A DNA stretch of 64,000 nt, taken from contig NW_026889755.1 in the NCBI RefSeq assembly GCF_033153115.1, forward strand, positions 2,914,001 to 2,978,000, given 5' to 3'. Under the pieces are notes generated by a model. It was not told where the DNA came from. It worked only from the letters and a program-made list of their open reading frames with translations, and did no database searches. Source of the DNA: Saccostrea echinata (lineage: Eukaryota). The translations under genes were made by a program, and so were the position numbers. Of this stretch, positions 2,080 through 63,290 are shown one piece after another. The first letter of the stretch is position 1. Every line of letters begins with the position of its first letter.

Positions 2080-3272
2080 CATTCGAGTCAAAGGAGTTTA
2101 TCCCCTTTAACAACACTTGACACATACACACGGGGAGAACAATTTTAAAGAATTTTGCAAATTCTCTGTGCTTTTCAACATTCTCTTCACCAGTGACAAC
2201 ATATGTCCTTCCTTGTTTGAGTTGAAGAATAAGTGAATTCAAAAGGGCTGTTACAGTCCATCTGCATTTTTATGAAGACAACACCATAAAAAAGGACTAC
2301 CTTCAAAAGTAAGACAAATGTCAGATCATATACCATTTAAGGACAATTCATTGTGTCAGATCAAGAAATAATATTAAACAATGAAATCACCTTTAATATT
2401 TAAATATTATTTACATGTGTTTTTATTTTGTTTATTGTTTACTTCTATCTTCTGGAATCAAATTCAATGTGATCCACAGGAATACTGCTGGTTTACCATG
2501 AGCCGTTTTAGAGACTTGGACTCCTAAGCTGATATAGCTTTTTTTTTTTTTTTTTTTACCAGATATGCATCTTGGTTTGCTGCATTCGTATAAACACTTC
2601 AGGGACCGTTTCACATTTTGTCTGCTTTCAAGTTTGTCAAATCGGACTTTGATTACCAAGTAACATCAACAATTTGAATCACGTTTTGTTATCATATCGT
2701 TTAATTGAATTTTGAAAACATGCATTGAACTCTTTCATTTTACAAATAACTTCATTGTACAATTTTTGGCAAGAATGAGTGAAAATATCCTGTCAATAAA
2801 TGGAATACGTAGCATCATTCTGATATTTATGGAGAACTTACAATTACAACGTAAGAAAACGTGTAAGCAAAACTTTTTAACAAATATCATGGTTACTGTT
2901 TTCTGGTTTTTACTGAAAGTGTACAGTTCTATAGGCTAACCTCTACTACAGAATATATAATTCAGCAAAAAATTACTACTGAATTTTGGAGAATCCTTGT
3001 CCTTTAGTGTTGGAAATTTGGATACATTTGCACTTGATTTCATTAAAATGTGGAATGCGTTGGTTCTGCTGTGGTTTGCTGAATAGTCTAAAGTGTTCAC
3101 GTGATCATCACATGTTTAGGTAGACATACTTCAAACTAATATCAAAACCAAGCACTTCGCGAACTGCTTCCATTAAATCAGGGTGAGAATTATCAGTACT
3201 ACGTATACTCATTTCCTTTGATAGTGATATCTTTCGCAACGTATCCAACCAAGCTCTCTTTCCCGCAGCCAT
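2080..3272 (-). pseudogene. Decayed multi-exon gene for a Cys-rich protein, probably transposon-borne
   Basis: Minus-strand segments read, with frameshifts and stops, ...KC(L)YECSKPRCISGKK...QQYSCGS...IPED (2440-2650) and GVVFIKMQMDCNSPFEFTYSSTQTRKDICCH..GEENVEKHREFAKFFKIVLPVC (2090-2300). A possible ATG exon lies at 3272. Confidence 0.45.
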
Positions 3273-4048
3273 GTTAATTTTATACATCTGGGTTACAGAA
3301 AAGTTTACATACCTGCACACTTTACTTAATTCAAGCGCCTAATTGACACACATAAAAATAAAACCTTAAACTATGATAGAAACACGAAAAAACGAAACGG
3401 AGTTTTGGAACATTAAAGAGCCAGGGAAAAAGAATTCTCGATAATTATAAATAAGTGGGGGAAAAATTGGGTCTGATACATTTAAAATGTATCGGTCGGC
3501 AATTGCAAACAAACAATATTTTATTTTAGGCCCAATGTAACCCAATATTTCCAATACCACAATTTACCAATGGGTATAGTGTAAGACAGTTTTATTAGAT
3601 ATTTATAGAACACTGTTGGGTAATGTACAGAATACCGGTATACTATTAGTGTATGTCTTTTATGTAGGAACATTGACCTGTGTATCTTAAAAACTACTTG
3701 GATTGCACTCCCTTGAGCAAACATTTTAGATTTGTTGGTAAGTTGAGGAATGTGTTTTTATTTCCTTAAATGAAATTGCTATTTATATAATTACTTATTA
3801 AAGTAGAAATGTTATGAACACTACGATCTTAAACGTCTTTAAAAAATATGGTAATGGGGGGGGGGGGGGGTGTGAAAGAAACAAACTTTCGTTACTTCAC
3901 TCCAGGGGCAACCAAGTAGCCACTAAGTTCAAATTTCAGACTTATTCAATATAATTAAATATGAATTTAATGAATTACAAAATAGATCTATTATGCAATT
4001 TTAAAACATATTTGAAAATTATTTTTAATTGTACAACGAGGAATGTGG

Positions 4049-25760: not shown

Positions 25761-26974
25761 TGTAATACATTGTAATATATCACTTTATTTTATACGTTAT
25801 ATTGTGCGGTCGTCCAGTTCTCAAACTTGTTAAATCTATGTTCACCATGTGCCTGCCAGAAAAGTTGTTAGTTTACAATTTTATTGAAAATAGTATCTCT
25901 GCCTATCTTGATACGATTGTAGTAATAACTATAATCATCATATTTTACCTCCTGTTACTTCATGTAAAGTCGTAGGATTTATAATATCAGGGATAAGAGG
26001 GTAGATTTTACATTTCATGTTTTGGTAGCCATCATACTTTACTCGGATCTTCATTTCCGGTTTAGTGACATATTTACTATAGAAATCTATGATTGAAGTT
26101 ATGAATATTGTATCAGATTCTACATTTTAATTTGAGTTGTTGTGCATTTTGAGGCTATAAGTAGTTCTTTATTGTCAGCATTTACTTTATTATCAGTCAG
26201 CTTAATCGGGACTACATTTGTTTACGCTATGGTTGGTAGTTACGATATTCATACGCTACATTGTTCAGTATCTGTTGTACATGCAAGGGATGTTTTATAA
26301 ACATTGAAAGTATTAATTTTTTTCGTCTAGTCAAGTTTATTTTATGTATTCTATTTACATTGTTATATTTGTTACGATATTGTACGATAGCTTGTGTGGC
26401 AAAAGTAGTTTTGTGTGGGAACTTGTGTGGGAACTCAGCTTCCCGTACAAGCTGTTGATTGGTTGATAGTTCGTACGGCATATTTTCATTGGATAATTTG
26501 TGTCATGTGACAGGGGATAGGAGAATATATAAGCAAGCGCGTACTATGTTACGACAGATTTCAGCTAGTTGTACGACAACAACATTTAAAAAGGTAAAAA
26601 AGAAAACAAAGACGGTGAGATACTTATAATATAAATTAAACGTAATTAGCCTAGTTAAAAATCTCCTACCACACTGGACGACCTAAACTTGTGTTTCTGA
26701 GGAATCAGCCATGTTATCTTATATTGTTATATGTGTATTGCCTATATTGTTATGATAATGAGATGCTGTACGTACAGTAAGTGATTAGTATGACTGATCA
26801 TTCATCTTAAGTATTATTCCACCAAGTATATAGAGAGGAGCCTGATCTATTTTACATGAGAGCAAATTAAATTGGTGCATCCTGTTAAATAGATGATTTA
26901 TTTAGATGATGGAGTAATTAGCTCTATACATGCTAAGGATTCAGAAATACTAGCCACCCCTTGGGTAGCTTACA
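25761..26974 (+). repeat. 5' LTR of element 1 (1214 bp)
   Basis: Direct repeat of 33779-34994 with scattered substitutions and indels. CCAAT (GATTGG), TATATAAG near 26527 and a candidate donor GACG|GTGAGA near 26614. Confidence 0.95.
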
Positions 26975-26977
26975 AAC

Positions 26978-26995
26978 TGGTGTCAGAAGTGGGAT
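26978..26995 (+). promoter_or_regulatory. Primer-binding site complementary to the tRNA-Leu 3' end
   Basis: TGGTGTCAGAAGTGGGAT, 3 nt after the LTR. Confidence 0.85.
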
Positions 26996-27148
26996 ACTAA
27001 ATTTTATTTAGTGTCCTGATACGAGCCCATGAGCCGTTCAGTGTGGTAGTTTTACAACTACATGAAAGTCTTAGAAGATAATATGACATAGATATAACAA
27101 TAGAATCATTACTACTTATTAAAGACGACGAAAAAAAAAGAATTTAAG

Positions 27149-28944
27149 ATGGCAGAATCCGGTGAGTCGGTTGATCATGAAGTCGAGGTAATGAGTCGGT
27201 TACATTTGAGGATGGTGGTCAAGGTGACACATATGATGAACGTCAGAAGTCAAGCAATGATGAAATATTTCCTCCCAAAAAAAAAAAAAAACGAAGACAA
27301 TCATGGTCCACCACCAAGCACCTATAGTGGTTTTTCTGGCAGACCTGCCCTTCAGCTTTCCTCCGCAAGTGAGTTAAGGCTAAGTATAGAAGTTTCAATG
27401 AAAACGAACGAATTAAAACGCATAAGGACTATACTTATTATACAGAAAAGGTTAAAACTTATTTTCTAATGCAAACATGGTGCCCGCGACAAGTGATAGC
27501 CAGTACACATTATGACGTCATTGCTCTCTACTACACCATGTTATAAAGAATATCAACAAAAAAGCTTCGGCGCAAGGGCATAACCTATTTATTTTTACAG
27601 AAACAGGGTCTAATAAGAAGCAGAATATTCCAAGGATTTGTGATATTGCTGCACAAATGTCAACAGATTAATTGTTTAGTTACTATTTGTAAAGTTTTCA
27701 GTTGAAACGGGGTAAAAATTCACAGTCCAGGGTATGTTTCCTCAAATTTTTATTAAACGAGAAAGTGCATAGGATTTGTGCAGCACTTTTTTTAATCTTT
27801 ATAATATTCTTCATAGAATTATACATTAATTACATAAAATTAAATAGGGTATGCCCTTGCGCCAAAGCCGTTCGTTGACGTACTTTTTTACTTTGAGTAC
27901 TAAAGAACAATGACGTCATAATATGACGTCATAATGTGCACTAGCTATAACATGCCTTGGGAACTAAGTATGTACACGAAAGTAAACTTAAGTATTCTCT
28001 GTATAATAAATATACCATTTTTGTATTTTTATTAGCTCATTTGCATAGAAACGCCTATACGTAGCCTTAAATCACTTGCGTCAAGTCCTATCCAACCTGT
28101 AAATAACATGGTGAAGCCAGAGTCCTATGATGGTACTGTAAGCTGGAAAGAGAAGATTTCACATTTCAACGGCTGTGCGGAACTAAGCCAGTGGACAGAG
28201 AGAGATAAAGTACTGTTTCTTGCTCTAAGCTTGAGAGGCCAAGCCAGGACATTTTACACGAGTTAATGTTTGGTTGAAAGAAGATCCTTTGACGCCCTTA
28301 TTAACAAGTCTAATCAGCGGTTTGGAAATTCCAGACACGAGAACAAATGGTTAGCTAAGCTTGAATAACTCAGACGACAACAGGGTGAGAGTGCTCCTGC
28401 TCTAGGTGATGATATCCGACAGATGGTTCACAAAGCCTACTGTAATTTAGATGAGCAAGCTCAAGAAAGCTTTGCTTTAAATCACCTTTACAAACTGATA
28501 ACTGTAGAGATGAAGTGCAGATGTATTGATAAAGATTGTCGGAGCATTTTAGAAGCTGCTGATATAATTGACAGATATGAAGCCATCCTTGGTGAAAACT
28601 ATGACAAAAAGAAACACAATGCTAGAGCTGTCAAAACAAATGATGAGGAATTTAATGTTCCACAAGCTGTGCCAGTGACGAGAAAGTTAGCATTTTTTAC
28701 TGCGTCTAGAAGCAACTCTCCTGATTCATCTTCACTAATTCAAGAAATCAGCAACAGATTGGACCGCCTGGAAAGAGCCAACAAGAAGTTTTCTCCTCAA
28801 CTCTGTTTCCACTGCAGCTCACCTAAACATTTTATCAAAGACTGTCCTTATTTGGACAAACCAAGACCTGGACAGAGAAGAAATCAAGATGTACTAAGGC
28901 GACAAAATTACCAACAGGGAAATGGGAGACCATCAGCCTTGTAG
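27149..28944 (+). pseudogene. gag: gag of element 1 (interrupted and frameshifted)
   Basis: VKPESYDGTVSW...HFNGCAELSQW...KVLFLALSLRGQARTFY and a CCHC knuckle CFHCSSPKHFIKDC. Split by a 689-bp insertion. Start uncertain. Confidence 0.85.
27378..28066. mobile_element. Kolobok-type MITE inside gag
   Basis: TTAA TSD (27374-77 / 28067-70), termini GGCTAAGTATAG / CTATACGTAGCC, long imperfect palindrome. Confidence 0.85.
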
Positions 28945-31530
28945 GTCGACAGCTGGTGGAGGAGCCAAGACCTAGTTCTGACGACTCACGGGGGTGGTTT
29001 TAAATAAATAGAAAAATGTCTCGGATAATGGTTTCCATATTACTGGAACATTGGGTGGGTGGATGTTATTTTTTTTTTACTAGACAGTGGTTCTACTGCA
29101 TCACTTTTGTCACATGTGGAATTTCTGAAGATTCCGAAGGAGTCGTGTCCTGATCTTCAACCCTCAAACATGTGTGCGCAAGATTTGAATGGTCATACAT
29201 TGTCAGTCCATGGTATGGGAAGATTTTACATTTATCTAGATGTTCCACATGCAGTTGACTTGTTGGTGGTTGACATGGATCTTCCTGCTATCCTGGGACA
29301 AGACTTTCTCTTGCAGTATTGTCATCACATTAACTATAAATCAAAAACACTAAAGACTGAGAAGACAACTGTTCAGTGCTGGATTACCAATGATCAAACA
29401 GCTACAAATGTAGAGGTCAAGAAAACAGTTTCCATACCTGCAAATTGTGGTATCTGGGTTCCAATAGCTTTGACCAGAAATGGAGACCTCACCGATATAG
29501 GCTTCCTTGAGCAACTTAACACCTCTAGTGATGACATACAAGTACTGGATGGTTTGATAGATACCCAGTCTGATCAGATAAATGTAAACATTGTAAACTT
29601 TGGAGAAGAACCTGTAAAACTTCAAGCCAGAACTCTAATCGGTAAATGCAGAAATGCATATTTAGTGGAACTGGGTACCATACCACAGAGAGTCTTAGTA
29701 CTTAAGGATACCAAGGAAAATACAACTCCTGAAAAAGATTTACCAGAACATCTCCTTGACATGTTTGAAAGAAGTTCGATAAATTTTGACCAAGAACAAA
29801 AAGATGCTTTCTTCAAACTACTCCTACAGCACAAAGATGTATTTTATAAGACACCAGATGATCTTGGCTGCACTGGTATAATGAAACACAAGATAGATAC
29901 AGAAAATGAGAAGCCAGTGAGACAACCTCTAAGAAGACAACCTATAGCAAAAAGAGATAGTGAAAGAAGAGAAGTACAGAACATGTTAGAGAAAGGTGTA
30001 ATTGAACCATCCAGCAGTGCCTGAGCATCAAATCTAGATTTGGTAGCTAAGCAAAATGGAGCCACCAGAGCATGTGTCGACTACAGACAGTTGAATGCGA
30101 AAACTGTGAAAGATGCCTATCCATTGCCCCGTATAGATGAATGCCTTGATTCTCTAGTACCAAATGGTTTTCAACGATGGACCCCAATTCAGGTTTTTGG
30201 CAAATAGAAATGTCTGAAAGGGACAAAGAGAAGGCTGCATTTGTTACAACATTAGGACTTTTCCAATTTCAAGTCATGCCATTTGGTCTGGTTAATGCCC
30301 CGTCTACATTTGAGCGACTTATGGAGAATGTACTGAAAGGTCTACAGTGGACTGAATGCTATATATATGGATGAAATAATTTCCTATAGTTCAACTTATG
30401 AGGAAGCCTTCAGCGCTTAGCCAATATTTTTACGAGACTTCAAGAAGCAAATCTAAAACTCAAGCCATCAAAATGTATATTTTTCCAAAAACAAGTCAAA
30501 TTCTTAGGTCACATACATGTAATTTCTTCAAAGGGTATCCAGACAGATACTGAAAAAATAGCTGATGTCAAAAACTGGCCAATTCCAAGGAATGAAAGAC
30601 AAATCCGATCATTCCTCGGACTTTGTTCTTACTACAGAAGATTTGTGAAGAATTTTGCAGAGGTAGCAAAGCCTCTCCATGATTTATACAAGAAAAAGAC
30701 AAAGTTCTTATGAACCCCTGAATGTCAGAATGCATTTTACACCCTCAAAACAGCTCTTACAACTTCGCCAATACTTGGGTTCCCATTACCTGGACTACCA
30801 TTTACTCTAGATACCGATGCCAGCAATAAAGCTGTTGGTGCAGTTTTGTCTCAACATCAGGAGGGCAAAGAAAGAGTAATTGCCTATATGAGTAAAACAA
30901 TGAACTGCCATGAGCAATCCTATTGTGTCACACGTAAAGAGTTGTTAGCTGTTGTCACTGCCCTTCAGAAGTTTCATTCCTACCTCTGTGGTGCTGAGAA
31001 GACCACGTCTCGCATAAAAAATTCATTTTACTGGCCATCAATGTCAAAAGAAATTGCAAGATATTGTAAAACATGTGATTTATGTGCTGCTCGTAAATCC
31101 AGCCAAAAGCAAAACAGAGCACCATTAGGACAGTACATGGTTGGAGAGCCATATAAGGGATAGCTCTAGATACTCTGGGACCTCTTCCTGAGTCTACAAA
31201 AGGTAACAGATACATTCTGGTCATGATTGATTGTTTCACTAAATGGACCGAAGCTATAGCTATCCAAGAAGCTGAAACTGTTATTACGACTTTTGTCAAT
31301 GAAGTAGTCTGCCGGTTTGGTACACCTTTAAAAGTCCACTCAGGTCAAGGAAGAAAATTTGAGTCAAAAGCTTTTAAAGAAGTGTGTGAACTTCTCCATA
31401 TTGACAAAACTAGGACAAGTAGTATGCAAACCTCAAGCTAATGGCAGTGTAGAACGCTTCAATCGTACCTTAGCTACTATGTTGACTATGTACTGCGAGC
31501 ACAACCAGAAAATATGGGACAAGTCATACT
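28921..31530 (+). pseudogene. pol: pol of element 1 (PR-RT-RH-IN), with multiple stops, frameshifts and internal deletions
   Basis: LLDSGS protease; SGFWQI and VMPFGLVNAPSTFER RT; LDTDAS and RKELLAVV RNase H; FYWP..CKTCDLC, DCFTKW and NGSVERFNRTL integrase. The RH-IN junction is deleted near 30990. Confidence 0.92.
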
Positions 31531-31925
31531 TAGATGTTTATGTAGATGATAGATGTGAGATTGGTGCACCATTGAAGTTGGGATAGAGCTGGTCTGATCA
31601 CCCAGAACTCTTCTCCCAAAGATGTTGATAGAGATGGTTAACAAGTCGTTTATATGACAGTATTATAGACGTGGACCTACTACCTGGTACACATCACACA
31701 TTGAATCCTATAGATGTTTGATGTCTTGTTCTAACCAGTTTCTTAGAGATTTAGATGTAGTTGTTAGTACATGTAGTGGCTAACTTCAGAAGTAGAAGTG
31801 TTAATGATGTTATGATATCCTATTTAGTTTAAACAACACAGAAACTCTTTTAGAAGATAAGGCGATGTAAGATGACGCATGAATTCCCCTTTAACAACCA
31901 ATTACTTTGATTTTAGACTATTGTT

Positions 31926-33767
31926 ATGGAGTGTTGGGTGTGCCACCTGGAGTTTTTCTCCAGCAGAGACCTTAAGAACCATATGATGCCTACGCATGGA
32001 ACTATGAGAGTTGTTTGTCCTTGGTGCCCCGACGAAAGGACGTATAAAAGAGTCACTGACCTCAGGAGCCACATCAAGTCAACACATCCTCACCAGCTCG
32101 CCAAATATCCATCTGACTTGATGTCGGAAAATAATGGTGTGTGGTTTAGCCTCGACCCAGAGGATACAGTCGTTTGGTCAACGGAACAGAATGGGGGAGT
32201 ACCTCTGCCACCCATGCAAGAGTTTTGTTCTTAGAATGGCTTTCCACCACAAGGAGAACCACCAGAAAAAAGGATGACTGGCAGAAAGGATGGGACAAGT
32301 TAAAGAAAATCACACACACACAGGCCCCAACCCCAGAAGCCTTATTCCAACCAGACTATGACGAAGAAGCCCTAGATATGCCAACCATATGCTACACGCC
32401 CTCTGCCCCTGAGATAGAAGAGCTGGAGATACAGCACGACTCGCTGATGTTGGGTAAAATATGCTTGTTTATAGGCCAGGGCAGACAGATCTTAAAGATG
32501 AATATAAGAGATGGCATCCTCACAGGGAGTAGCCAGTCTCTCGAGGAAGTTGTCGGTACAGAAGAGGAATGAAGCCCCTCAGATTGACCAGACGAAGATG
32601 GTGCAATTAAGTTCACCTACCTTCCAGTCTAGATTAATGAAATTTGCTGGCCTTGACAAGACCTACCTTGAAATGATATATACCACGACAGAGGCATATG
32701 ACAACAGTCCTCCCGCAAAGAAAATCAGATTTTCAAGCCCAACCCCTGCTCTCACTGCACCAGCCATAGCAGAAACTCCATCTGAGCCAGCCTCGCAGTC
32801 AGTGAAAGATTCTACTAGTAATAAGCCTAGAGCAAGTATGTCAGATAGGGCCCTCAACCTCCTAAAACGTGGATGTTTACCATTATTTCCTCCAGGAAGA
32901 AGGAACTGGGGCACAGAACAGTTAACACTGAAGTTGAAAGATCTCAGTATTTTATGGCCTCCAAAGGACTGGCAGGGGATGTCATCTGATAGAAAGCTTT
33001 TATCGTGGGAATTCAAATCCATGACTATTCAACAGAAGATAGACCAAACAAGTTCCACTATCGAACGTGTGGATTTATTAGATAAGTTCAATTTCCTCGC
33101 ACTTCCGGGATCAGTAGAGAAGATTGGGAAGGAGGAACAAATTGTTCGAAAGGCTCGATACTACATATATGAACAACTGAAGACAATAGTTAGCGAAGAC
33201 AATGGGGATTCGACCTAGGTAAAGATGCTCGAGAGATCATGTGCTCTTAGGGACCCCTCCACTGATGACCTTCTTGCAATTATAGCAGACATGTTTACTC
33301 TTACGATTTCGCCGTATTTTGTACGGATTTTCAGTACGTTTTGCTATAACGAAAATACGGAAATCCGTTCATATGGATTTTAGCAATTAGTTTTCGTTAT
33401 CTGTCTCAGTTTGACGCTTTTTAATCGCTAAAGAAGAGAAAATTTTCAAACATTTAAGTTGCCAAAACGCAGTGGTTTTAAAAATGACAGAAAGCACTCA
33501 AAAGAGAGCAGTGTATGACGTTTTGCTTTGTTATTAAACCATGTTTTGGTAATCAGAAATGTAGTTGTTTTCTAGTAATATATGTATAGTCGATGAAAAG
33601 TTAAATCTTACGGGCAAATGCCAAATCTCACTGACAAATCTAATGAAAAATATTGAGAGACAGCAATTTGGGTAAACAGGTCTGTTATAGACTCTAACTG
33701 TAAATCTGTAAAGACTGTTAAAGCTATGTTGATGAAAATTTTAAATTCAGGAGAATTTTGTAATTAA
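31926..33767 (+). pseudogene. ORF3 of element 1: ~480-aa protein with two N-terminal C2H2 zinc fingers
   Basis: Overlapping ORFs 31926-32234, 32174-32572 and 32511-33218 join through two frameshifts. The frame continues past TAG (33216) and across the 33286-33684 insertion to TAA at 33765. CWVC-x12-HxxxxH and CPWC-x13-HxxxxH. Acceptor TTTTGATTTTAG at 31916. Confidence 0.75.
33286..33684. mobile_element. 399-bp MITE with 6-bp TSD (hAT-like CAG termini)
   Basis: TIR CAGACATGTTTACTC / GGGTAAACAGGTCTG. TTATAG at 33280-85 and 33685-90. Confidence 0.8.
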
Positions 33768-33778
33768 GTTGTGGGGAG

Positions 33779-34994
33779 TGTAATATACTGTAATGTATCA
33801 CTTTTTTTTATACGTTATATTGTGCGGTCGTCCAGTTCTCATACTTATTAAATCTATGTTCACCATGTGCCTGCCAGAAAAGTTTACGCTTACGATTTTA
33901 TTGAAAATAATATCTCAGCCTATCTTGATACGATTGTAGTAATAACTATAATCATCATATTTTATCTGTTGTTGCTTCATGTTAAGTCGAAGGATTTATA
34001 ATATCAGGGATAAGAGGGTGGATTTTACATTTCATGTTTTGGTAGCCATCAAACTTTACTCGGATCGTCACTTCCGGTTTAATGACATATTTACTATAGT
34101 AATCTATGATTCAAGTTATGAATATTGGATCAGATTCTACATTTTAATTTGAGTTGTTGTGCATTTTGAGGCTGTAAGTACTTCTTGATTGTCAACATTA
34201 ACTTTATTATCAGTCAGCTTAATCGGAACTACATTTGTTTACGCTATGGTTGGTAGTTACGATATTCATACGCTGCTTTGTTCAGTATCTGTTGTACAGG
34301 CTAGGGATTTTTATGAACATTGAAGGTATTAATTTATTTGTCTAGTCAAGTTTATTTTATGTATTCTATTTCCAGTTGTTAATTTTACATTGTTATATTT
34401 GTTACGATATTGTACGGTAGCTTGTGTGGCAAAAGTAGTTCTGTGTGGGAACTCAGCTTCCCGTACAAGCTGTTGATTGGTTGATAGTTCGTACGGCATA
34501 TTTTCATTGGACAATTTGTGTCATGTGACAGGGGATAGGAGGATATATAAGCAAGCGCGTACTACGTTACGACAGATTTCAGCTAGTTGTACGGTGGCAA
34601 CATTTAAAAAGATAAAGAAGAAAACAAAGACGTTGAGATACTTATAATATAAATTAGACGTAATTAGCCTAGTTAAAAATCTCCTATCACACTGGACGAC
34701 CTAAACTTGTGTTTCTGAAGAATCAGCCATGTTTTCGTATGTTGTTATATGTGTTTTGCCTATATTGTTATGACAATGAGATCTGTACGTACAATAAATG
34801 ATTAGTATGACTGATCATTCATCTTAAGTATTATTCCACCAAGTATATACAGAGAGAGGAGCCTGATCTATTTTACATGAGAGCAAATTAAACTGGTGCA
34901 TCCTCGTAAAAAGATGATTTATTTTGATGATGAAGTAATTACCTGTATACATGCTGAGGATTCAGAAATACTAACACCCCTTGGGTAGCTTACA
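33779..34994 (+). repeat. 3' LTR of element 1
   Basis: Follows the PPT, matches the 5' LTR and is followed by the ATAT TSD. Confidence 0.95.
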
Positions 34995-35734
34995 ATATGT
35001 TTAACATATGTTTATGAACATATGTTGATCGAACATTTAACATATGTTGCTTATGTGTTTTGTTTGAACATATGATTAACATATGTTTATGTTCATATGT
35101 TTTTCGTATGTTAAACATATGTTAAGTTTATTTCTTGCTTACATTTATTATTTAATTATTTTGTATTTCTATGGATTGCAAAGTTAACTAAAAAGTACTC
35201 TTGTCCTTTGATCATTTAATGATCACAGTCTCCAGCAATAATATTGTGTTTATTTTTTTCAAATTTTTACAAAATCCTGACTTTATTTCCCTGACAGTGA
35301 CTGCATTGCTTCTGAAATGATAAAGAAAAGATCATAAAAATTAAGAAGTCAACTACATGTATAATTAAAAAAAATATATACCTGTATATAGTTTGCACAA
35401 AGAGTAATTACTTTGAGCACTTACAATTTTTTTTCTTGGCCTGTTCTTTGTTTTCTTCCATTTTACAACCCCTTGGAACCTCATCATAGGATTTGAAATT
35501 GTCGCATGTTAAGGTACTGTGCGGCACTACAGTGGAGACTCCAATTTTAAGGTTCTGTTGATTAATACAGGTTCTCTGAAATACAAATTAAACTCTACAT
35601 GTAATTTAAGTTCATACACTGAAGAAATTTGTCATGTGCAAACAAATGCATACTCCATTCTCCTAAACAGTTATCCGTTATGATACGAGTTAAAACTAAT
35701 TTCATAAAACAATATATGGTGTTGTATAACACCA

Positions 35735-37272: not shown

Positions 37273-40200
37273 AAACTAGTATTAATTGTAACGGGGACCG
37301 TTACAGATGTTCCCCAAACGCTCCCCAACTTCCTTTTGGTGTCTTATTCCCTGTAAGCTTCATTAAATAAGGCAATCAAGTATATTGGGTTTTTTTACGC
37401 ATTACACACGCGCGCACAGGCATGCATGTACAAAATGACCATGTCAACTTGTCTACATTTTTAATAATCTTTATATTCAAATTTCATTAAGAGATTAAAA
37501 AAAAAATTCGGCTATATTAAGTATATCTGTCATTTTACGCATTGCACGCGCGCGCACGTGCATGCATGTCCATGATGACCGTGTCATCTTGTCAACACTA
37601 TAAATATATCTACATATTTCGGGTATCAAATCATTTCATCCAAAAGTATAAAAGTTACAGCTATATCAAGTATATTGGTCATTTGAACATTGCATGCGCG
37701 CGCACATGCATGCATATGCATGTTGACAATGTCGTCTTGTCTACATTTATAATATGTCTATATATTCTGAGTATCAAAGCATAGCATCAAAAAATGTAAA
37801 AGTTATGGCTATATCAAGTATATTGGTGATTTTACTCATTGCACGCGCACGCACGTGCATGCAAATGCATGCATGTGCGCGCTGATCATATCATCTTGTC
37901 TACACTTCTAATATATATTTATATTCTGAGTTTCGAAGCAATTCATCCAAAAATATACAAGTTAAGTGTATATTATTCGTAAAGGTTATTTCAATCATTG
38001 CGCATGCGCACACGTGCATGAATGTGCATTTTGACCATGTCTTCTTGTCTACACTATTAATATATCCTGATATCCTGAGTATCAAAGCATTTCATCAAAA
38101 GAGTTGAAAGTTATGGCTATATCAAGTATATTTGTCATTTTACTCATTGCACGCGCACGCACGTGCATGCATGTGTGCGCTGATCAAGTCTTCTTGTCTA
38201 CACTTCTAATATATATTTATATTCCGAGTGTCAAAGCAATTCATCCAAAAATGTACAATTTAAGTCTATATCAATTGTATTGGTTATTTTAATCAATGCG
38301 CATGCGCGCACGTGCATGCATGTGCATTCTGACCATGTCATCTTGTTTACACTATTAATATATTCTTATATTCTGAGTATCAAAGTATTTCATCAAAAGA
38401 TATAAAAGTTATGGCTATATCAAGTATATTGGTCATTTTACTCATTGCACGCGCACGCACGTGCATGCACGTGCGCGCAAAATGACGTTCGTTCCGCAAA
38501 TCTACATAACATTCCTATTAACCCTAAAAAGGTTTCAACTCAATCGGATGTATAGTTTCGGAGATCACTCACGGACAAAAAAGTACCCAGGAAGAAAAAT
38601 AATAATAATAACTAGATACTTATTGCCTAGGCAATAACAGGTCTTCCGTTTTCTTGACTTCTTTGGAAAAAAAAACACAATCTTGTCAAAAAGATTACTC
38701 TAAATAATTAATAAAAGTTATCTCAAGGCTTCCAAAGATATGTAAATACAGATAAAAACAAACGGAATTACTTTTCTGTTTTCTTTATATACTTCGTCAT
38801 GAACGAAAGTGCTCCAAATGAATAAAATGTTCATTCTACACCTAAATTATTCACAACTGATCATCCCTAAAAGTTTCCATGAAAAACTACTCATATTTGA
38901 GACAACTTCCGGTTTTTCGGTTGGCACTTCCGATGAAAATAATTTGCATGGTCATGGTCTTTCTTACATCTGCATTAGCCAAACATTTCTGTAAAAAGTA
39001 AAAAAACTTCACTTTTTTGCATCGCTTCCTGTCACGACCGGAAGTGACGGCAACGTACGATTTTTACATGATGTAGATAAAATGGTGACTGACTATCAGT
39101 TCTGAAAGTTTTAGACTTCAGTCATATACTGTTTTTGAGCAATTAGGTGAACAAAGTTTCAATTTGAGGACAGAAAAACACGCGACCGGAAGTGCATTTT
39201 CCTAAGATGGTTGACTTCACACTAGACAATTGCAGTCTCAATAACATATGTAAAAAAAACATTGCAAAAACTTTATCAATAAGCGATATTTTTGAGAAAG
39301 TTAAAAATACCGATTACAAAGTTTCTCTCTTATAACCGGAAGTTGTCGTCTTTTGTTTCCAGTGAGACCAACACATATAGAAACGGTGAAAGAGATTCAA
39401 TTAAATGATGCAAATTTTATTTCAAAAGAGAAAATTTGAAATTTTTAATTTCTTTGATCACTTCCTGTAACGACCGGAAGTGACGGCTGACGCTATTAAC
39501 CCAAAGGGTTAAGCTTACTCCTTAAGTTCTATTACTCTTATAAGTATAGTGTCTTATTCTCTTACCGTTTCTGAGATCTCACTTTGACAAGTTCTTATTT
39601 TGCGGACAGTAAAACACGCGACCGGAAGTGAATTTTACCAAGATATTTGACGTTACTCTAGACATTTGCAGTCTAAATAACCTATCTAAAAACCATTTCA
39701 AATACTTCAACCATAAGCGATATTCATGGGAAAGTAAAATACTAAAATTATGTACTTTTTCGCTTATAACCGGAAGTTGACGTTTTTGTTTCCGGTGGGA
39801 CCAACATATTTCGAAACTGCAAAACAGATTCAATAATGTGATGCAAGATTTAATTAAAATAAGAAAAGTTGAAATTTTCGATTTCTTTGATCACTTCCTG
39901 TGACGACCGGTAGTAACAACTGACGAATCTAAACCAATTCTGCAAACCTACTTGTCATGATCTATCACTCGTGAAAGTTTGGTATTTTAAGCTTTTACCG
40001 TTTCTGAGATCTCGTCCGGACATGATCTCTTTTGAAAAAACGGAAATCGGACATATCTGACGACCGGAACTGAATTTTGCAAAATCCTTCAAAATGTTTT
40101 AAGTTTATTATATTTGTCATAAACTCTGAAAGTTTCAAGAAAATCCACCAAGCCATCTCTGAGAAATTGCTTGGACAAAAAACGGGAAAAAAATAATAAT

Positions 40201-42860: not shown

Positions 42861-44275
42861 ATAAATTTAGAGACATAATTCTTCAGATTGTAAAACGTTT
42901 TTATTTACCAATTTACGGAAATGTGTAACGCATGTGTTTCTAGATATCTCATGTTTTCTATTTTCAGATGATATAAATAGGTTTTTTTTCGTTTTCCTGG
43001 TTATTTTGCGCTAGAAAGTTGTTTATTTGTAAAGGAGTTAACAAGTGCATATTTAAGATTTTTTAACATTTCCTTGAGAGTATAAATAATTATTCAAAAT
43101 TAAAAAAAAATCTGAACGATTAATCCATATATTGAATCCTAGCGTGTAATAGTCGGGGATAGAATTATATATTTTTTTTCTGCTCTTAACTCTATAAATC
43201 ATCAAAGAGGTTAAGTAATACCGATACTGTGAAATCATTTTAATTCGTGGGGAAGCATTTTTTTTTTAGTTCATGGGGAAGTTATCTTGTGTGTAACTCG
43301 TTTATGCGGTAGGTTCAATGAAACAGTATGTTAACAATTAATCGTGGGGATGTAAATTTGTGGTTTAGGGTGACCCACGAACATCATCAGTATTCTACCA
43401 GAACTTAATGTTGCTTCAAATCAAAAACATAACATTATTTTTGGTCACAATTTTTACTTTTGTAGAAAAAGAAAAGAAAAGGGATGAACCAACCAATAGT
43501 AGTAGTAAGTGTGGATAACGGCTATTGATCAACTAACTACCACATTGTAGTGGCGTTTACTTTTAAAAAGTTTTCCAATGGATATTTCTGAAATGTATTG
43601 TCTTCCCACAAATTTTTATTAAAATAGAAAATTTGGTGTTATGACTGATACATTGTATATAATGCAATATTATAATAAATTCATCTTTTGTTTTGAGAAT
43701 GTAATACTTTTGGAAAGATATGTATTTTTAAAAAGTAACTTTTATGGAGAAAAACATAAATTGTGTTTGAGTATTTAGTGTCAGAATTTAGCACAAAATA
43801 CATGTATTGTTACAGTGAAAGAATCAATTTGTCACCCAAGATTTTCTTCTTTATTCAATGTTAAACAGTTTTTGTACAGGTGAAAAAAAAGACTTTCTTT
43901 TACAAACATTGACATGTCCAACTAATGGATTCCTATTGTATTTTAGTAAATAATTTTCCTATGAGCTTTTAGAGTCAGATGTTCAATAAGCATGATAATC
44001 AAATAATTACGTAATAGTGTTAATCTCTTTTGTGATTTTGTCTTTTTGGTTAAGAAGGCCTAAGGGTCTGAGGTCAAGCACAGGTGTTCAAATTTACTCA
44101 ATTACTGTGGCGGTCATTTTTTATGTCACATGATCACTCCGTTTAATTAATATTCTTTATTCGGAAAATTTTCACAACTTTTGGCTATTCACTAAAGAAA
44201 TACTAAATTTTGATTGGCTGAAATCCTGTAATCCAAAGACGCGGAATCGTAGGTGAAAATGCACCCTAGCTCGGT

Positions 44276-45200
44276 CACTTTCATCGACGATTCCGAGAAA
44301 TAAACTTCAGTTAATTAAAAATATATTTTCTTTATTCTTTGGATATTTACAGGTATGTAAATCATATATTTTTCAGTTAATTGATTCATTTTCCATTAAA
44401 GCAATTCTGTCTATTTCATAAATAATTTTGAAAAATATTAAGTATTCTATTGATTAAGTATTTTTATTTATTTCTTTTTTTTCTAAATTTGAGCTTTGAA
44501 TTAAGTTTCCTTTAAAGATTTTATTGTTGCATAATCTTTATGCATAGTGACCTCATTTAGTCTTTTATAGTTTATAGTTGCATGTTTTATTGTAATAAAT
44601 GGGTTTAGCGACAGTCTCAAGTAAAGTGCATTGTTCTTAGAAAAGTTATTTGTAATTTAGCGCCATTATATTCATTTTGCGTTCTTTAATGTAAGGAGGT
44701 AAAAATGTTATTTGTTTATGTTTAAAAACGCTGGAAAAGTAAAATGACTTTAGAGTTAAAATCGTAAGTAAACAAGCTTTTGATTGTTAAGATTAATGTT
44801 AGATTTAAATACTTTCTAGTTCAGTCTATTTGTAATTTTAGTTCTTTATTGATCAAAGTCAAGAGATGCGTGTAGCGTTGATAAGGATCGTTTCGAATTT
44901 TCTCTGTGTATGAATTAGAACCTTGAGACTGTCAGCTGTACTGATGTGTAGTTTAGGTTTATTTTTGGTATCTACGTTGTGTTAAAATGTCACGTCACAG
45001 AGGGATTTTTCTCAAATTGTTTAACCCTCTGTACAGTCACCTGATCTAACTTTAAAACGTATTTTTATAATATTTTGAATTAATTGTGTAACTGGTGACT
45101 GTTTGTTTAAAAGCATTACATTGCACTTTCATCGACGATTCCGAGAAATAAACTTCAGTTAATTAAAAATATATTTTCTTTATTCTTTGGATATTTACAG
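44276..45200 (+). repeat. Identical 77-bp direct repeat (44276-44352 and 45124-45200) bracketing a GT-AG intron candidate (44353-45200)
   Basis: The two copies are identical by eye. Copy 1 is followed by GTATGT; copy 2 ends in a pyrimidine tract + CAG. Each contains AATAAA. Confidence 0.9.
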
Positions 45201-45342
45201 CCACCGTAGAGGACAAACCAAATACTGCCCACGAGTAGAGCAAATCCAAATACGGAGTAAAGAATTTACAAAGCGAATGATTCCCCAAATTAATATATAT
45301 ATAACAAGTTCACGTATAACCCCAAAAGAACAACGTGACAAC

Positions 45343-45351
45343 TGGTGGAGA
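45343..45351 (+). promoter_or_regulatory. Primer-binding site (TGGTGGAGA, tRNA-Ala-like, short match)
   Basis: 2 nt after the LTR-terminal CA. Confidence 0.6.
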
Positions 45352-45376: not shown

Positions 45377-46621
45377 ATGCCCAAGTACAACTTAAGGAAA
45401 AGACGAAACATGTCAACCGGAACGCCCGAGAATGCCTCGACTTCCACACAGGCAGAACCAGCTAATCTTCAGGCAGAAATCATGGCTAGGGTCCATGAGA
45501 AAAATGAGGAAATCGAAGTACTTAAACAAAGAGTGGAGGCAGAAAAGCAACGACAAGAGCAGAAGGAGCAGGAGCTGGCCTCAATGAGACAGCAGTTACT
45601 GGTGCTCAAGCAACAACAACAGCAGCAACAACAGCAGCAACAGCAGCAAGTACCAACACCCCCACCACAAATGCAACAGCAAGCCAGTCCTAGCCTAGTG
45701 CCAGCTACAACAAAACTGTCCAACATCAAGCTGGAGAAATTTGATGGAAAAACATCTGCTGTTCAGTGGTGGATGAAATTTATGGCTTTTATTTCCATAC
45801 AAGGTCTTTCAGAACAGACAGCCATCCTCCACTTACCCTTCTTCTTAATTGGAGCAGCAGAGACGTGGTTTAATTCATTGGAAATGGTAAAAAAATTAAC
45901 ATTAAGTTCAATTCAAGAAGCCTTCATCAACCGTTTCAAGCCACCATCAAACCATGCCTTTGATCTTCTAGACATGCACCAAGGACTTGCAGAGAGTGTT
46001 GAGGAATTTATACATAGGGTAACAGAAAAAGCAACGGACTTGAAAATGGACACCAATCAGACCATGGGTAAAATAATCAGAGGCTTAAAACCAAAAATAA
46101 AAGCAGATATGGTAAAAGTCAACCCTAAAACCATGGAGGAACTTCGAACTCATGCTATGCTTGCAGAGATGGCCCAAACCATTAGTAATGACGACAATGT
46201 ACAGTCTGCAACCAGTGCCGCAGTATGCAGTGCAATGACATCCCTGGAGGAACGGATGAGTGCTCTGGAGACGTCGAATATCAACATGCTCCAGCAGGCC
46301 AGACGTTTCAACAACTCAACCCCACAGAAGCCCTCCTTTAACAACGCCCAAGGCCAGTCACAGAGGGGTCCTCAGCGCCATGGGTACAGGGAGCCTGAGC
46401 CGAAGAACCAGAGTCCCAAACAGAGGTCCTCCCAGCGTTGCTACAGATGTGGTGAGTCTTGTGATTCATTTTATAATTGTAGAGCCAGAAATCAAAAATG
46501 CATGTATTGTGGTAGATTTAATCATTTATGGGGATGCTGTCGTAGATTAGAAAATGACCTTAAAAATGGTAGAGTTCCACGTACTGACATACAGTCCTTG
46601 ACTACTAATAATTCTGCATAG
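45377..46621 (+). CDS. gag: Gag of element 2 (coiled coil, poly-Q, capsid, two Cys knuckles)
   Basis: Intact 414-aa ORF with KLEKFDG..W, LIGAAETWF, Q...ESVEEF, RGLKPKIK, CYRCG...C and CMYCGRFNH...C. Confidence 0.93.
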   Translation: MPKYNLRKRRNMSTGTPENASTSTQAEPANLQAEIMARVHEKNEEIEVLKQRVEAEKQRQEQKEQELASMRQQLLVLKQQQQQQQQQQQQQVPTPPPQMQQQASPSLVPATTKLSNIKLEKFDGKTSAVQWWMKFMAFISIQGLSEQTAILHLPFFLIGAAETWFNSLEMVKKLTLSSIQEAFINRFKPPSNHAFDLLDMHQGLAESVEEFIHRVTEKATDLKMDTNQTMGKIIRGLKPKIKADMVKVNPKTMEELRTHAMLAEMAQTISNDDNVQSATSAAVCSAMTSLEERMSALETSNINMLQQARRFNNSTPQKPSFNNAQGQSQRGPQRHGYREPEPKNQSPKQRSSQRCYRCGESCDSFYNCRARNQKCMYCGRFNHLWGCCRRLENDLKNGRVPRTDIQSLTTNNSA

Positions 46622-49600
46622 GGATTCGAGCCTGTCTTTAGGAAAGTTTCTAAAGATGGGCACAATGACAAATGTCCTAGGGTAAATGTGGTGACACATA
46701 TGTCCAAAAACACAGTCAAAGTTAGCATTAAGGGACAAACAACTAGTGCTCTTGTAGATTCAGGTGCTGCAGTGACAATTTTAAGTAAGGTGTTCTTTGA
46801 AAAAACCGCTTATTGTGGGTCAAAGTTGCAAACTCCAGATTTCCCTCATGTGATAGGTGCTAGTGGTCGACATTTAAAAGTGCTAGGCAAAACAAATATT
46901 GAATTTGCAATTAATGGTACTAGATACACCTTTTGTGCCCATATTGTTGATGGTTTACATCACTCCTTTATTTTAGGAATTGACTTTTTGTGTGCTTCTA
47001 ACACCACACTAACCTTTGCTGATACTAACACAATGCACATTCCAGACAAAAATGGTGCACCAAATGTTTGTGTAATTAACACTAATGCAGGGTTAGCCAG
47101 ACTTACTCACCCAGTAGAGTTACCAGCTAGGTCAGAATTGATTGTTCAGGTCAAAATTTCACGCCAACAACAAGACAGAGAAGTGCTACTTGAGCCACAT
47201 GATAAACTTTTAGCTAAAAAGTTAGGTGCTGCAAAATGCCTTGTTAAGGTTCACAAACAAAAGGGTGTCATCAGAATTATGAATCCTCACTGCTACGAAA
47301 TTTGCTTGCCCCAAAATTATGTTGTTGCTCATGTTATGGAAATAGAAGAAAATCACATTTTTCCTTTAGACTCAACATCAAAACATCATAATGGCAAATG
47401 CAATATTCCTCAGGTCAATCAGATCACTCCAGAAATTCAAAAACAAACTGAAATTCATTTCAATCTTGACAATGCAGATTTGGATTCTTCTCAAAAGCAA
47501 ATTCTGTTAGACTTTTTGGCTAAACACAGGGACAATTTTGCTCTTGATTTAACAGAATTAGGCAAAACAGGTATACACAAACACCACATAGAAACCAAAC
47601 CTGGCTCACGACCTGTTCGATTACCCTTTTACAGAACATCTCCACATTCATCTAGGGAAATTGATAGACAAATACAAGAGATGCTTGACAATGACATTAT
47701 TCAGCCATCTAACTCTGAATGGCACTCACCAGTGGTTCTTGTCAAAAAGAAAAACAATACATACAGGTTTGCATGTGACTATCGTGCATTAAACAAGATC
47801 ACAATTCCCATGTCATTTCCCTTGCCACATATTGAGAGTGTGTTTGATGCCATAGGTGAAGCTAAAGCAACATACTTTACCAATCTCGATTTGATGTCAG
47901 GATTCTGGCAGATGGAGTTAGATGAAGGTAGTAGGCAAAAAGCAGCTTTCATCACACAAAGTGGTGTTTATGAGTGGAAAAGAATGCCTTTTGGATTACA
48001 AAATTCTCCAATTTCTTTCCAAACATTAATGGCAAATGTTCTCAGAGGTTTGAATTGGAAATCCGTGCTCGTTTATGTAGACGACATTTTGATTTTTTCT
48101 AGCTCTTTCGATGAACATCTCAAACATTTAGGCCATGTTTTTGAACGTCTAAAAGAAGCAAATTTAAAATTACAGCCCACAAAATGCCACTTTGCTGTGA
48201 AAAAGCTCAAATTTTTAGGTCACATTATTTCTAAAAATGGTATTCAGGTAGACCCAGAAAAAACCAAAGCCATGAGTGAATTTCCCACTCCCAAAACACA
48301 AAAACAGATCCGTAGTTTTTTAGGAATGGCAAATTACTACCGTCGTTTCATTCCTAACTTTGCAAAAATTGCAACGCCCTTAAATGCCCTATTGTCCAAA
48401 GAGAAAAGGTGGGAATGGACAGAAGCTTGTCAAGAAGCTTTCTTAACACTTAAAAACAAATTGGTAAGTGCTCCAATCCTTTCCTACCCTGATCCAAACA
48501 GGCCATTTATTCTTACATGTGACGCCTCAGACACCTCAGTTGGTTATGTGTTAGGTCAATTGAATGACGAAAACAAAGAATATGTTGTGGCATATGGAGG
48601 TAAGTCACTTTCTCCAGATCAACGCAAATTCACAACAACTGAAAAGGAATGTTTAGCAGTTTTAACTGGCATAGAGGCATATCGACCATACTTAGTTCAT
48701 GGTAAGTTTACAGTTGTGACAGACCACAAGGCACTAGTATGGTTACAAACAGCAAAGCATACAGGTAGGTTAGAAAGATGGGCGCTAAAATTACAAGAAT
48801 ACTGTTTTCAAATGGTACATCGTCCCGGCAAAAGTAATTGTGTTGCAGATGCGCTAAGTAGACGACCGTATCCAGACACTGAGGTAAGTAGTCAAACAAT
48901 CAGTTCACTTGAAAACATTGCCACACTCACCTCTGAAGAAAATACAGCAGTAGTGAGTTCATCAGAAGACACTGAAGAAGAAAGATGTCCTCTTTTTGTT
49001 TACCTAGGATACTCTGATGATCCCAAAGAAATAAATGTACTTTCCACAGAAGAGGTAAGTGATACAGAACCCCCATCAGTCAATTTGACAGACCTTCCAA
49101 AACTGCAGCAAGAGTGCCCAGATTTTCAGCATATTTATGCATATCTAAAAGACAATATACTTCCAGACGATGCCAAAACCAAACAGGTAACAGTAGCAGA
49201 AGTTAGACACTTTGACTTAGTTAATGGAATTCTTTACCATTGGTACCAGAGAAGGGTAAAGAAAGCAGTAGATGATGAGGTAAAACATGTCAGACAAATA
49301 GCCCTCCCAAGAGTCCTACGGCAAGAGCTTTATTTGCATATCATGATAGCCTTGCAGGAGGTGCCCACTTAGGCATAGAGAAGGTCAGACATGCTTTGGT
49401 ACTGAAATATTATTGGCCAAAGATGTATCAGGATGTTATAGATTATGTCAGGTCATGTGATAGGTGTCAGCGTGCAAAACGTGACTACAATCCCTCAAAC
49501 CCTCCAATGAATCCCCTACCCCCAGCTAAGCGCTTTGAACGCTGGCACATTGACATTCTAGGGCCACTATATAAAACAAAAGAAGGGTTTGAATACATTT

Positions 49601-61528: not shown

Positions 61529-62177
61529 TGTCACCGGGTCTTTTGTAGGATAAAAATCCAAAACTGGATTCGGCACAAACTATATTTATTTACTGTGCTT
61601 AGAACAAAAAACCTACAAAGTATAAATTAAACACACTCTCACAACACAATACACACACAAAACGAATACTTTACGTTTAACATCAGACATTAACAACACA
61701 TAAATTATATGATTGTTTGCTGTCGGGATTAATTAATAAAAGTAAATTATAAAATACTTTTATTATTATAATTATAATAAAGGTAAACAGAAAGCTTACC
61801 AGGAATCCAGTTAAATTAACTCCAACTAATACTTTACAGAATACTTCTATGTTTCAAATACATGTACAAACTTCTACCGTAAAGGCAAAACGCGTGGGGG
61901 GGGGGGGGTTCGAAAATTGGCGGGTACTACGCTTATATACTCGGTGCAGAAATTAAAACATGCATATTAACAAGATAAAAACAGTCGGTTATTGGTCAGC
62001 TGTAAGGTCATATTAGTTCGCCTAACCGGAAACACGTGGAAATACAAAAATAAACAATGTCACATGATCTCCCAAAACATTCACACTAGACACACAACAC
62101 AAACAAACGCAGCGAACGCATTCGATTGGCAATGCGCGCCAATTTTATGTATAAATTAAAACACAACATCTGTGACA
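61529..62177 (-). repeat. 5' LTR of element 3
   Basis: Direct repeat of 53103-53727, flanked by the ATAA TSD. Confidence 0.95.
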
Positions 62178-62689: not shown

Positions 62690-63290
62690 TAGTATACCCT
62701 TGCAACACGTTGCGTGAGGTATAATGTTTTTGACCCGTCTATCATCAGTCAGTCAGTGTGTCAGTCAGTCAGTCCGTCAGTCCTGGGTTGTTTTTTTTTT
62801 TTTGTCAGTGCAACTCCTCATAAACTGCTGCACAAATTTCATTAAACTTTGCAGATATTTAGCACACAATGTGTAGATGTGCATATTACCAGGAAATTCC
62901 GATTCCTTTATTTTTTCTCGGAATTTCGGCACTTTTCAACTTAGATTTTTTGCCATATCTTGAATATAGAGATGAACAGTTTGTTAGCGCAACTCCTCAT
63001 AAACCGCATCACAGAATTTTGTCATACTTTGCAGATATTTAGCACACAATGTGTAGATCTGCATATTTCCAGGAAATTCCGATTCCTTTATTTTTTTCTG
63101 GGAATTTCGGCACTTTTGAACTTAGATTTTGGCCATATCTTGAATAAAGAGATGAACAGTTTGTAAGCGCAACTCCTCTTAAACCGCTGCACAGAATTTG
63201 GTCAAACTTTGCAGATACATGTTTTTAGGACACAATGTGTAGATGTGCATATCACCAGGAAATTCTGATTCCATTATTTCTCTTGGAATT
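62690..63290 (+). mobile_element. 3'-truncated HINE with ~179-bp units
   Basis: 5' palindrome TATACCC.TGCAAC..GTTGCG.GAGGTATA and (CAGT)n. CAACTCCTC at ~62811, ~62990 and ~63169. Confidence 0.8.

Follow-up and report, generated by a model that had tools for sequence, protein, structure and literature searches.

The locus studied here raises the question of how a long terminal repeat (LTR) can hold what looks like an intron, when reverse transcription normally erases introns. It lies in a 64,000-nt stretch of Saccostrea echinata DNA (contig NW_026889755.1, positions 2,914,001 to 2,978,000), called the window below, which contains a 5′ LTR and the coding regions of an env-carrying Ty3/gypsy element. 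Within this LTR an exact 77-bp repeat occurs twice, at 44276-44352 and 45124-45200, with 848 nt from start to start (BLAST E 2.7e-33). Our answer is that the LTR probably has a split R region, in the order U3 (unique 3′), R (repeat), an intron ending in a second copy R′, and U5 (unique 5′). This arrangement would carry the intron through reverse transcription, the RNA being spliced at its 5′ end and unspliced at its 3′ end, and the cDNA landing on copy 2. With less confidence, we lean toward a broader view, in which an old clade of env elements has an undescribed layout combining the split R, a real spliceosomal intron in each cycle and a U3 antisense hairpin that would act as a switch only at the RNA 3′ end, with a sub-clade that would integrate via an internal wrong-strand attachment (att) site, flipping the first ~50 bp of U3. 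The parts of the LTR are as follows.

43599..45340, plus strand: 5′ LTR of a Ty3/gypsy element with env, 1742 bp, TGTC...GACA, delimited by seven other LTRs
43599..43646, minus strand: inverted left-end segment, the reverse complement of the first ~50 nt after the polypurine tract (PPT), a sub-clade trait; basis, palindromes in solo LTRs L003 and L005 and the same inversion in related elements
44212..44217, plus strand: GATTGG in U3, a CCAAT box in reverse, which several families likewise have ahead of copy 1
44225..44265, plus strand: U3 arm with predicted pairing to copy 1, which could form only in RNA of the 3′ LTR (fold z -5.2)
44276..44352, plus strand: copy 1, putative first exon or R, from an initiator (Inr)-like TCACTT to AG
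44353..45200, plus strand: putative GT-AG intron, 848 nt, donor GTATGT, with copy 2 as its final 77 nt
45123, plus strand: base that varies between G and A immediately 5′ of copy 2, a candidate scar of strand transfer (cap copying)
45124..45200, plus strand: copy 2, where strong-stop DNA would land; it includes AATAAA, a pyrimidine tract and the CAG acceptor
45201..45340, plus strand: U5, 140 bp, with no AATAAA or ATTAAA

The 77-bp identity cannot be extended on either flank. Copy 1 begins one base into the Inr-like TCACTT (44275) and has GTATGT directly after its AG end; the last letters of copy 2 are a pyrimidine tract plus CAG, and CCACCG comes next. AATAAA stands at 44299 in copy 1 and at 45147 in copy 2, and a third is at 44594. 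The initial annotation had described the two copies, their spacing, their AG|GTATGT and CAG ends and their poly(A) signals exactly, and the GATTGG and TCACTT that it placed upstream of and at copy 1 are indeed found at 44212-44217 and 44275. It was also right that the copies lie inside an LTR, but that LTR (43599-45340) is larger than the 44276-45200 it noted. A genome search gave 35 matches, seven of which are other near-full LTRs with 94-99% identity. The right end of all seven corresponds to 45340 or lies at most 5 nt off, both 77-bp copies are present in every one, and five have 4-bp target duplications (of the seven, one is 5′-truncated and one has no displayed 3′ flank).

In the proposed cycle, transcription would start at copy 1 of the 5′ LTR, and the cap-proximal intron would be spliced out, taking copy 2 and its poly(A) context with it. 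At the 3′ LTR, U3 would be present in the RNA and would pair with copy 1, covering its acceptor-like 3′ part and in some families the donor too; the intron would be retained and the RNA cleaved within copy 2, ahead of the acceptor AG. Strong-stop DNA, consisting of U5 and copy 1, would then anneal to copy 2 and be extended through the intron, copy 1 and U3. Copy 2 would be rewritten from copy 1 in every cycle, so that the intron would be inherited like U3, from the 3′ end only. Placing the transcription start site (TSS) at copy 2 instead was rejected, as it leaves copy 1 unexplained, and so was a back-spliced circular RNA as the main template, which would give intronless LTRs only. Short junction reads cannot discriminate among readings, because spliced copy 1 plus U5 is letter-identical to genomic copy 2 plus U5; four low-share contig sets held scattered pieces without joints and were counted neither for nor against splicing.

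The layout was followed through 39 elements located by reverse transcriptase (RT) and env queries, comprising 19 env-related elements, 10 with 51-65% RT identity and 10 with 44-49%. Among the 19, an internal LTR repeat was found in 16, two have intronless LTR pairs and one has no LTR pair; C6b, lacking such a pair, was counted neither as carrier nor as non-carrier. Eight of the 10 elements at 51-65% identity have the layout, as against none of the 10 at 44-49%. In a quick tree of 43 rows, which takes in three metagenome loci and no published POL reference sequences, a single RT clade of 29 (SH-aLRT 99) contains all 24 carriers, the two intronless elements, two non-carriers and one metagenome row. 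Those three came from a metagenome scan that returned 79 loci, the best with 52% RT identity on a 5.6-kb contig; a viral scan gave none. Some members of the carrier clade have no env. In full-length relatives both LTRs carry the layout, as the initial annotation had supposed for this element; the window element itself has no 3′ LTR, its env being cut and other repeats following from ~52600. A basal branch (C33a, with L128/L129; C1c, with L282/L283; C52, with L284/L285) has 44-45-bp repeats around a spacer of ~235 nt and AATAAA solely in the intron, directly before copy 2; a TATA-like box is present in C33a as well, and C1c and C52 gave no env match.

Taking one element per distinct repeat gave 15 families. 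Where a canonical U3-R-U5 LTR has a single contiguous R, all 15 have two R-like copies of 44-77 bp around a spacer of the form GT...AG (231-1520 nt). Within an LTR the copies have no mismatch in 14 of the 15, and between families they are only 39-78% alike. In every family the repeat identity stops at AG|GT, exactly in nine, with the GT shared in five and with 4 nt shared in one, against a background AGGT frequency of 49 per 14,520 nt; the exon|GT boundary noted at the window locus is thus a feature of all 15 families. The repeat starts at, or a few bases from, an Inr-like motif, and the pyrimidine fraction before the acceptor is 0.59-0.94. The GT donor, pyrimidine tract and AG fit a spliceosomal U2 intron. 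Taken alone, the perfect identity in the window would also be in keeping with a single insertion that duplicated a long target, with a tandem duplication of recent date, with purifying selection by itself or with an error of assembly. We regard these as scarcely credible, since the LTR copies are dispersed on several contigs, the 15 families differ in their repeats and in the length of their spacers, and the same new mutation occurs in both copies of single LTRs; the one-off insertion or artefact that the initial annotation had allowed for can be set aside on the seven other LTRs and the 15 families.

The history of the two copies is also informative. A subfamily of ~78% identity has its diagnostic changes in both copies, and L160, L181 and L317 each have one private change, again in both. 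Across 38 LTRs of four families, 23 distinct variants are in both copies; copy 1 alone has 20 and copy 2 alone 27. The distance between copy 1 and copy 2 increases with the distance to the nearest LTR (rho 0.72, n = 37). From this pattern, the copies are evidently matched during replication and diverge once integrated; because they drift apart after integration, the matching belongs to replication and not to the chromosome, which counts against chromosomal gene conversion, selection alone and artefact. The shared variants, the private double mutations and the related families agree with the earlier proposal that the copies evolve in concert. As for linkage, looked at to see whether the intron travels with U3 and not with U5, F25 had incompatible pairs between U3 and U5 (12/32), U3 and intron (3/64) and intron and U5 (4/32), mostly owing to one site; F20 was recombinant throughout, and F9 had no incompatible pairs.

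It is conceivable that splicing plays no role and that a long unspliced R has its copies homogenised by RT template switching, by unequal exchange in cycles of deletion and triplication, or by DNA gene conversion. Deletion between direct repeats by RT is known (in the parts of PMC12172438 available), and such processes could yield intronless and half-intronless LTRs. However, they are blind to the landmarks at which the repeats begin and end, namely the Inr-like start and the AG|GT found in 15/15 families; moreover, the copies diverge after integration, and no three-copy LTR was present among the loci scanned. We therefore consider this explanation very improbable.

Poly(A) signals bear on where the RNA's 3′ end would be formed. 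Every one of the 15 families has AATAAA 34-61 nt upstream of the acceptor; 12 have it in both copies, one has it in copy 2 alone, and two have it in the intron alone. Cleavage falls 10-30 nt after AATAAA, and with this spacing it would precede the AG. TGTA was counted 23 times before copy 2 and 7 times before copy 1, the introns being U-rich in any case. A variant of our reading has the same splicing and split-R transfer with no poly(A) switch, the 3′ RNA passing the acceptor into U5 or flanking DNA and copy 2 plus U5 being chosen as the longer match. This variant would explain the concerted copies equally well, and AWTAAA is present in U5 in 3 of the 14 families with a defined U5. Against it, the other 11 have no such signal in a U5 that can be as short as 32 nt, and the signal before the acceptor is found in every family, with the excess of TGTA before copy 2; we judge it unlikely, if a little less so than homogenisation without splicing.

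A split R with a 3′-end switch poses a further problem, in that the cDNA must choose copy 2 over a full-length copy 1, a choice for which the initial annotation gave no reason. A predicted fold pairs copy 1 with the ~50 nt at the end of U3 (z -5.2, compared with 0.2 for copy 1 from the TSS and 0.05 for copy 2 in context). The fold of U3 plus copy 1 reaches z <= -2 in 14/15 families and <= -3 in 10/15; intron plus copy 2 reaches z <= -2 in 0/15. The hairpin is the strongest fold window in all three split LTRs scanned. An alignment of eight window-family LTRs shows pairing in 93.5% of cells and changes on both sides at 6 of the 31 pairs, a count reached by 4 of 500 shuffles, with the structure derived from that same alignment in both comparisons. 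As transcripts include U3 at their 3′ end only, copy 1 could be concealed by such a fold at the 3′ LTR; the acceptor-like end of copy 1 is predicted to be masked by U3 in 12/15 families (p 0.002), the only significant masking. The conserved predicted hairpin thus offers a possible reason for the choice of copy 2.

A candidate trace of the transfer itself is found at the base preceding copy 2. When the six youngest window-family LTRs are compared, 24 of 1400 columns have substitutions, and the only shared one is 45123 (G in three, A in three); the base before copy 1 is invariant in the same LTRs. G stands directly before copy 2 in 6/15 families vs. directly before copy 1 in 2/15 (p 0.016). This is suggestive of a cap-copy scar, and the pattern matches cap copying at the HIV-1 (human immunodeficiency virus 1) transfer junction, as far as the source describes it (PMC12172438). 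There, cap copying takes place at the U3-R junction, whereas here the marked site is 848 nt downstream of the putative TSS, before the second copy of R.

LTRs that lack the intron fit into the same picture. In C44 and C29 neither LTR has the intron, and 4-bp target duplications are present; since both ends are intronless and so flanked, the intron was probably lost before integration. In C16 (G000:C16 about 13012500-13023900) and C61 (about 588960-600090) the 5′ LTR is intronless and the 3′ LTR contains the intron, with matching 4-bp target duplications; the reverse arrangement, an intronless 3′ LTR only, was not seen among the elements examined. C16 and C61 would thus be the DNA image of the proposed RNA. 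L019, L021 and L310-L313 are further intronless LTRs (L310 and L311 share a flank and are possibly one insertion). Intronless LTRs would arise from landing on copy 1 or from splicing at the 3′ end; they fit landing on copy 1 and repeat deletion equally and are no proof of splicing. The "self-restoring" intron of the initial annotation has a limit, for the intron is lost for good once both LTRs are intronless, as in C44 and C29.

Several points weigh against the split-R reading or narrow it. The TSS at copy 1, the 5′ splicing and the cleavage in copy 2, as well as the direction of overwriting from copy 1 to copy 2, are things that we infer from DNA. All data are from one genome, the 15 families share a common ancestry and are non-independent samples, and two elements nested inside the carrier clade are without the layout. 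For the hairpin, windows at z <= -3 occur somewhere in three of six control LTRs too; the donor is more paired with U3 in 11/15 families (p 0.15), so that donor masking is not general; the first 25 nt of R are masked in 10/15 (p 0.08); and the best partner of the U3 arm is its own repeat in only 8/15, with rank <=4 in 15/15. Only the window family shows a clear hot spot at the base preceding copy 2; in F25 that base tracks a sub-lineage, and F9 and F20 are uninformative.

By its gene content, the window element fits among known env elements. The coding part downstream of the LTR consists of the following.

45343..45351, plus strand: primer-binding site (PBS)-like TGGTGGAGA, with TGGTG in relatives
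45377..46621, plus strand: gag, ending in TAG in frame with pol (PF03732, PF19259)
46622..50670, plus strand: pol (protease, RT, RNase H and integrase, PR-RT-RH-IN), in two frames in the window copy, by Pfam
51192..52712, plus strand: F-type env, 3′-truncated, with RQTR furin-like site (PF12259, E 5.8e-18)

The Pfam order of gag, then PR-RT-RH-IN, matches Ty3/gypsy; an rve integrase and a zinc finger are present, and the four open reading frames (ORFs) gave no Pfam match to GIY-YIG or tyrosine recombinase, which sets the element apart from Penelope-like and DIRS elements. Paired direct LTRs, PPT and short target duplications, all hallmarks of Ty3/gypsy, are seen in relatives, which rules out the 1.7-kb unit as a miniature inverted-repeat transposable element (MITE), Helitron or Penelope piece, as does the PBS-like motif. 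TGGTG follows the 5′ LTR in relatives, and the PBS-like motifs are alike only in TGGTG and variable beyond it; gag starts 37 nt past the LTR. The env, of 506 aa in the truncated window copy and 797-851 aa in several relatives, has RQTR followed by a hydrophobic stretch, which fits an F-type env with furin site and fusion peptide. Gag, PR-RT-RH-IN, F-type env, a furin-like site, LTRs and a PBS-like motif are common to this element and to the F-type env errantiviruses and other env-carrying metazoan Ty3/gypsy elements in the accessible part of PMC13524379, and the window element fits that group. In bivalve rows of its supplementary file 1, LTRs are about 370-1850 bp with mostly poor tRNA matches, a pattern like that of the long LTRs and weak PBS matches here, and one row has a 551-bp LTR and a PBS resembling a 552-bp intronless element of the present genome. 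The available text has no match for "splic", "inverted" or "polyadenyl" and one for "intron", and no description of internal LTR repeats was seen in it.

The Drosophila TART element, a non-LTR element, has non-terminal repeats that are kept alike by template jumps. We know of no TART or DIRS repeat that is bounded by a TSS and a splice donor. DIRS elements, whose split direct repeats are mentioned in the available part of PMC8557442, also keep these alike via template jumps in reverse transcription, but they are tyrosine-recombinase elements. The same source, as available, reports that Penelope-like elements keep introns after retrotransposition, including a 5′-UTR (untranslated region) intron; these are non-LTR elements with pseudo-LTRs and GIY-YIG, the significance of retention is called unknown there, and no duplicated exon was seen in it. 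Foamy virus resembles the proposed switch in the portions of PMC3694450 at hand. Each of its LTRs has a splice donor within R; poly(A) at the 5′ LTR is suppressed by U1, which is blocked at the 3′ LTR by a different RNA fold. The likeness lies in a donor in R and a 3′-LTR-specific fold, here predicted in 14 of the 15 families, with donor masking as given above. Foamy virus differs in having one R and a donor upstream of the poly(A) signal, with no acceptor, duplicated exon or LTR intron described in those portions. In HIV-1, in Rous sarcoma virus, mouse mammary tumour virus and human T-cell leukaemia virus 1 (RSV/MMTV/HTLV-1), and in Moloney murine leukaemia virus (MoMLV), the signal is placed in U3 or weakened according to the same portions, whereas here it would be spliced away. 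A literature search, with most subscription papers and Repbase/Dfam entries outside its coverage, found no LTR whose intron lies between two copies of an exon, and none with a split R. The clade-wide layout is real, and the variant of LTR replication apparently undescribed.

If the reading is true, the textbook U3-R-U5 scheme would be extended and the rule of intronless cDNA in LTR elements broken, and identical LTRs would have another way to serve as promoter at the one end and as terminator at the opposite one, in addition to those in the accessed parts of the PMC3694450 review. The repeat boundaries would then reveal TSS, donor and transfer site from DNA alone. Human HUSH spots retroelements by their intronless cDNA (PMC8770142, in the part available); that a heritable 5′ intron aids element expression in its own host is speculation. 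Intronless variants and inverted left ends affect the annotation and dating of LTRs.

Those inverted ends form a second peculiarity of the clade. In a sub-clade, the ~50 nt that come after the PPT in the 3′ LTR stand reverse-complemented at the start of the 5′ LTR. This was seen in the window (43599-43646), in L003, L004 and L005, and in C7, C6a, C25a, C1a, C9, C63, C30 and C40b, and was not seen in C20/C44, C16, C33a/C29, C33b, C61 or C1c/C52. A 4-bp target duplication adjoins the inverted piece in 8/8 elements checked, and the forms observed include inversions in place, full palindromes (as in the solo LTRs L003 and L005) and inversions with a subsequent deletion. The arrangement suggests that integrase may use a plus-strand CA ~50 nt inside U3; the literature search, with the coverage given above (most subscription papers and Repbase/Dfam outside it), found no precedent for an inverted LTR end. 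Large deletions directly after the inverted left end occur in several 5′ or solo LTRs (L101 about 3244-3300; L007, L015, L017). A C17 3′ LTR (L103 about 13919-14114) has a local fold-back inversion involving copy 2, and G000:C25 8954536-8968148 is a tandem array of ~3-kb units, each with one near-complete F25-family LTR.

Elsewhere in the window are two other Gypsy elements (25761-34995 and 53103-62177) with LTR pairs 91-92% identical and broken ORFs; neither has repeats inside its LTRs, and the second, on the minus strand, shows an ATAA target duplication. There is also a 447-aa open frame unrelated to the elements (20795-22138), and tandem arrays occupy 957-1827 (168-bp unit), 18024-19456 (156), 37511-38478 (149) and 62801-63279 (180).
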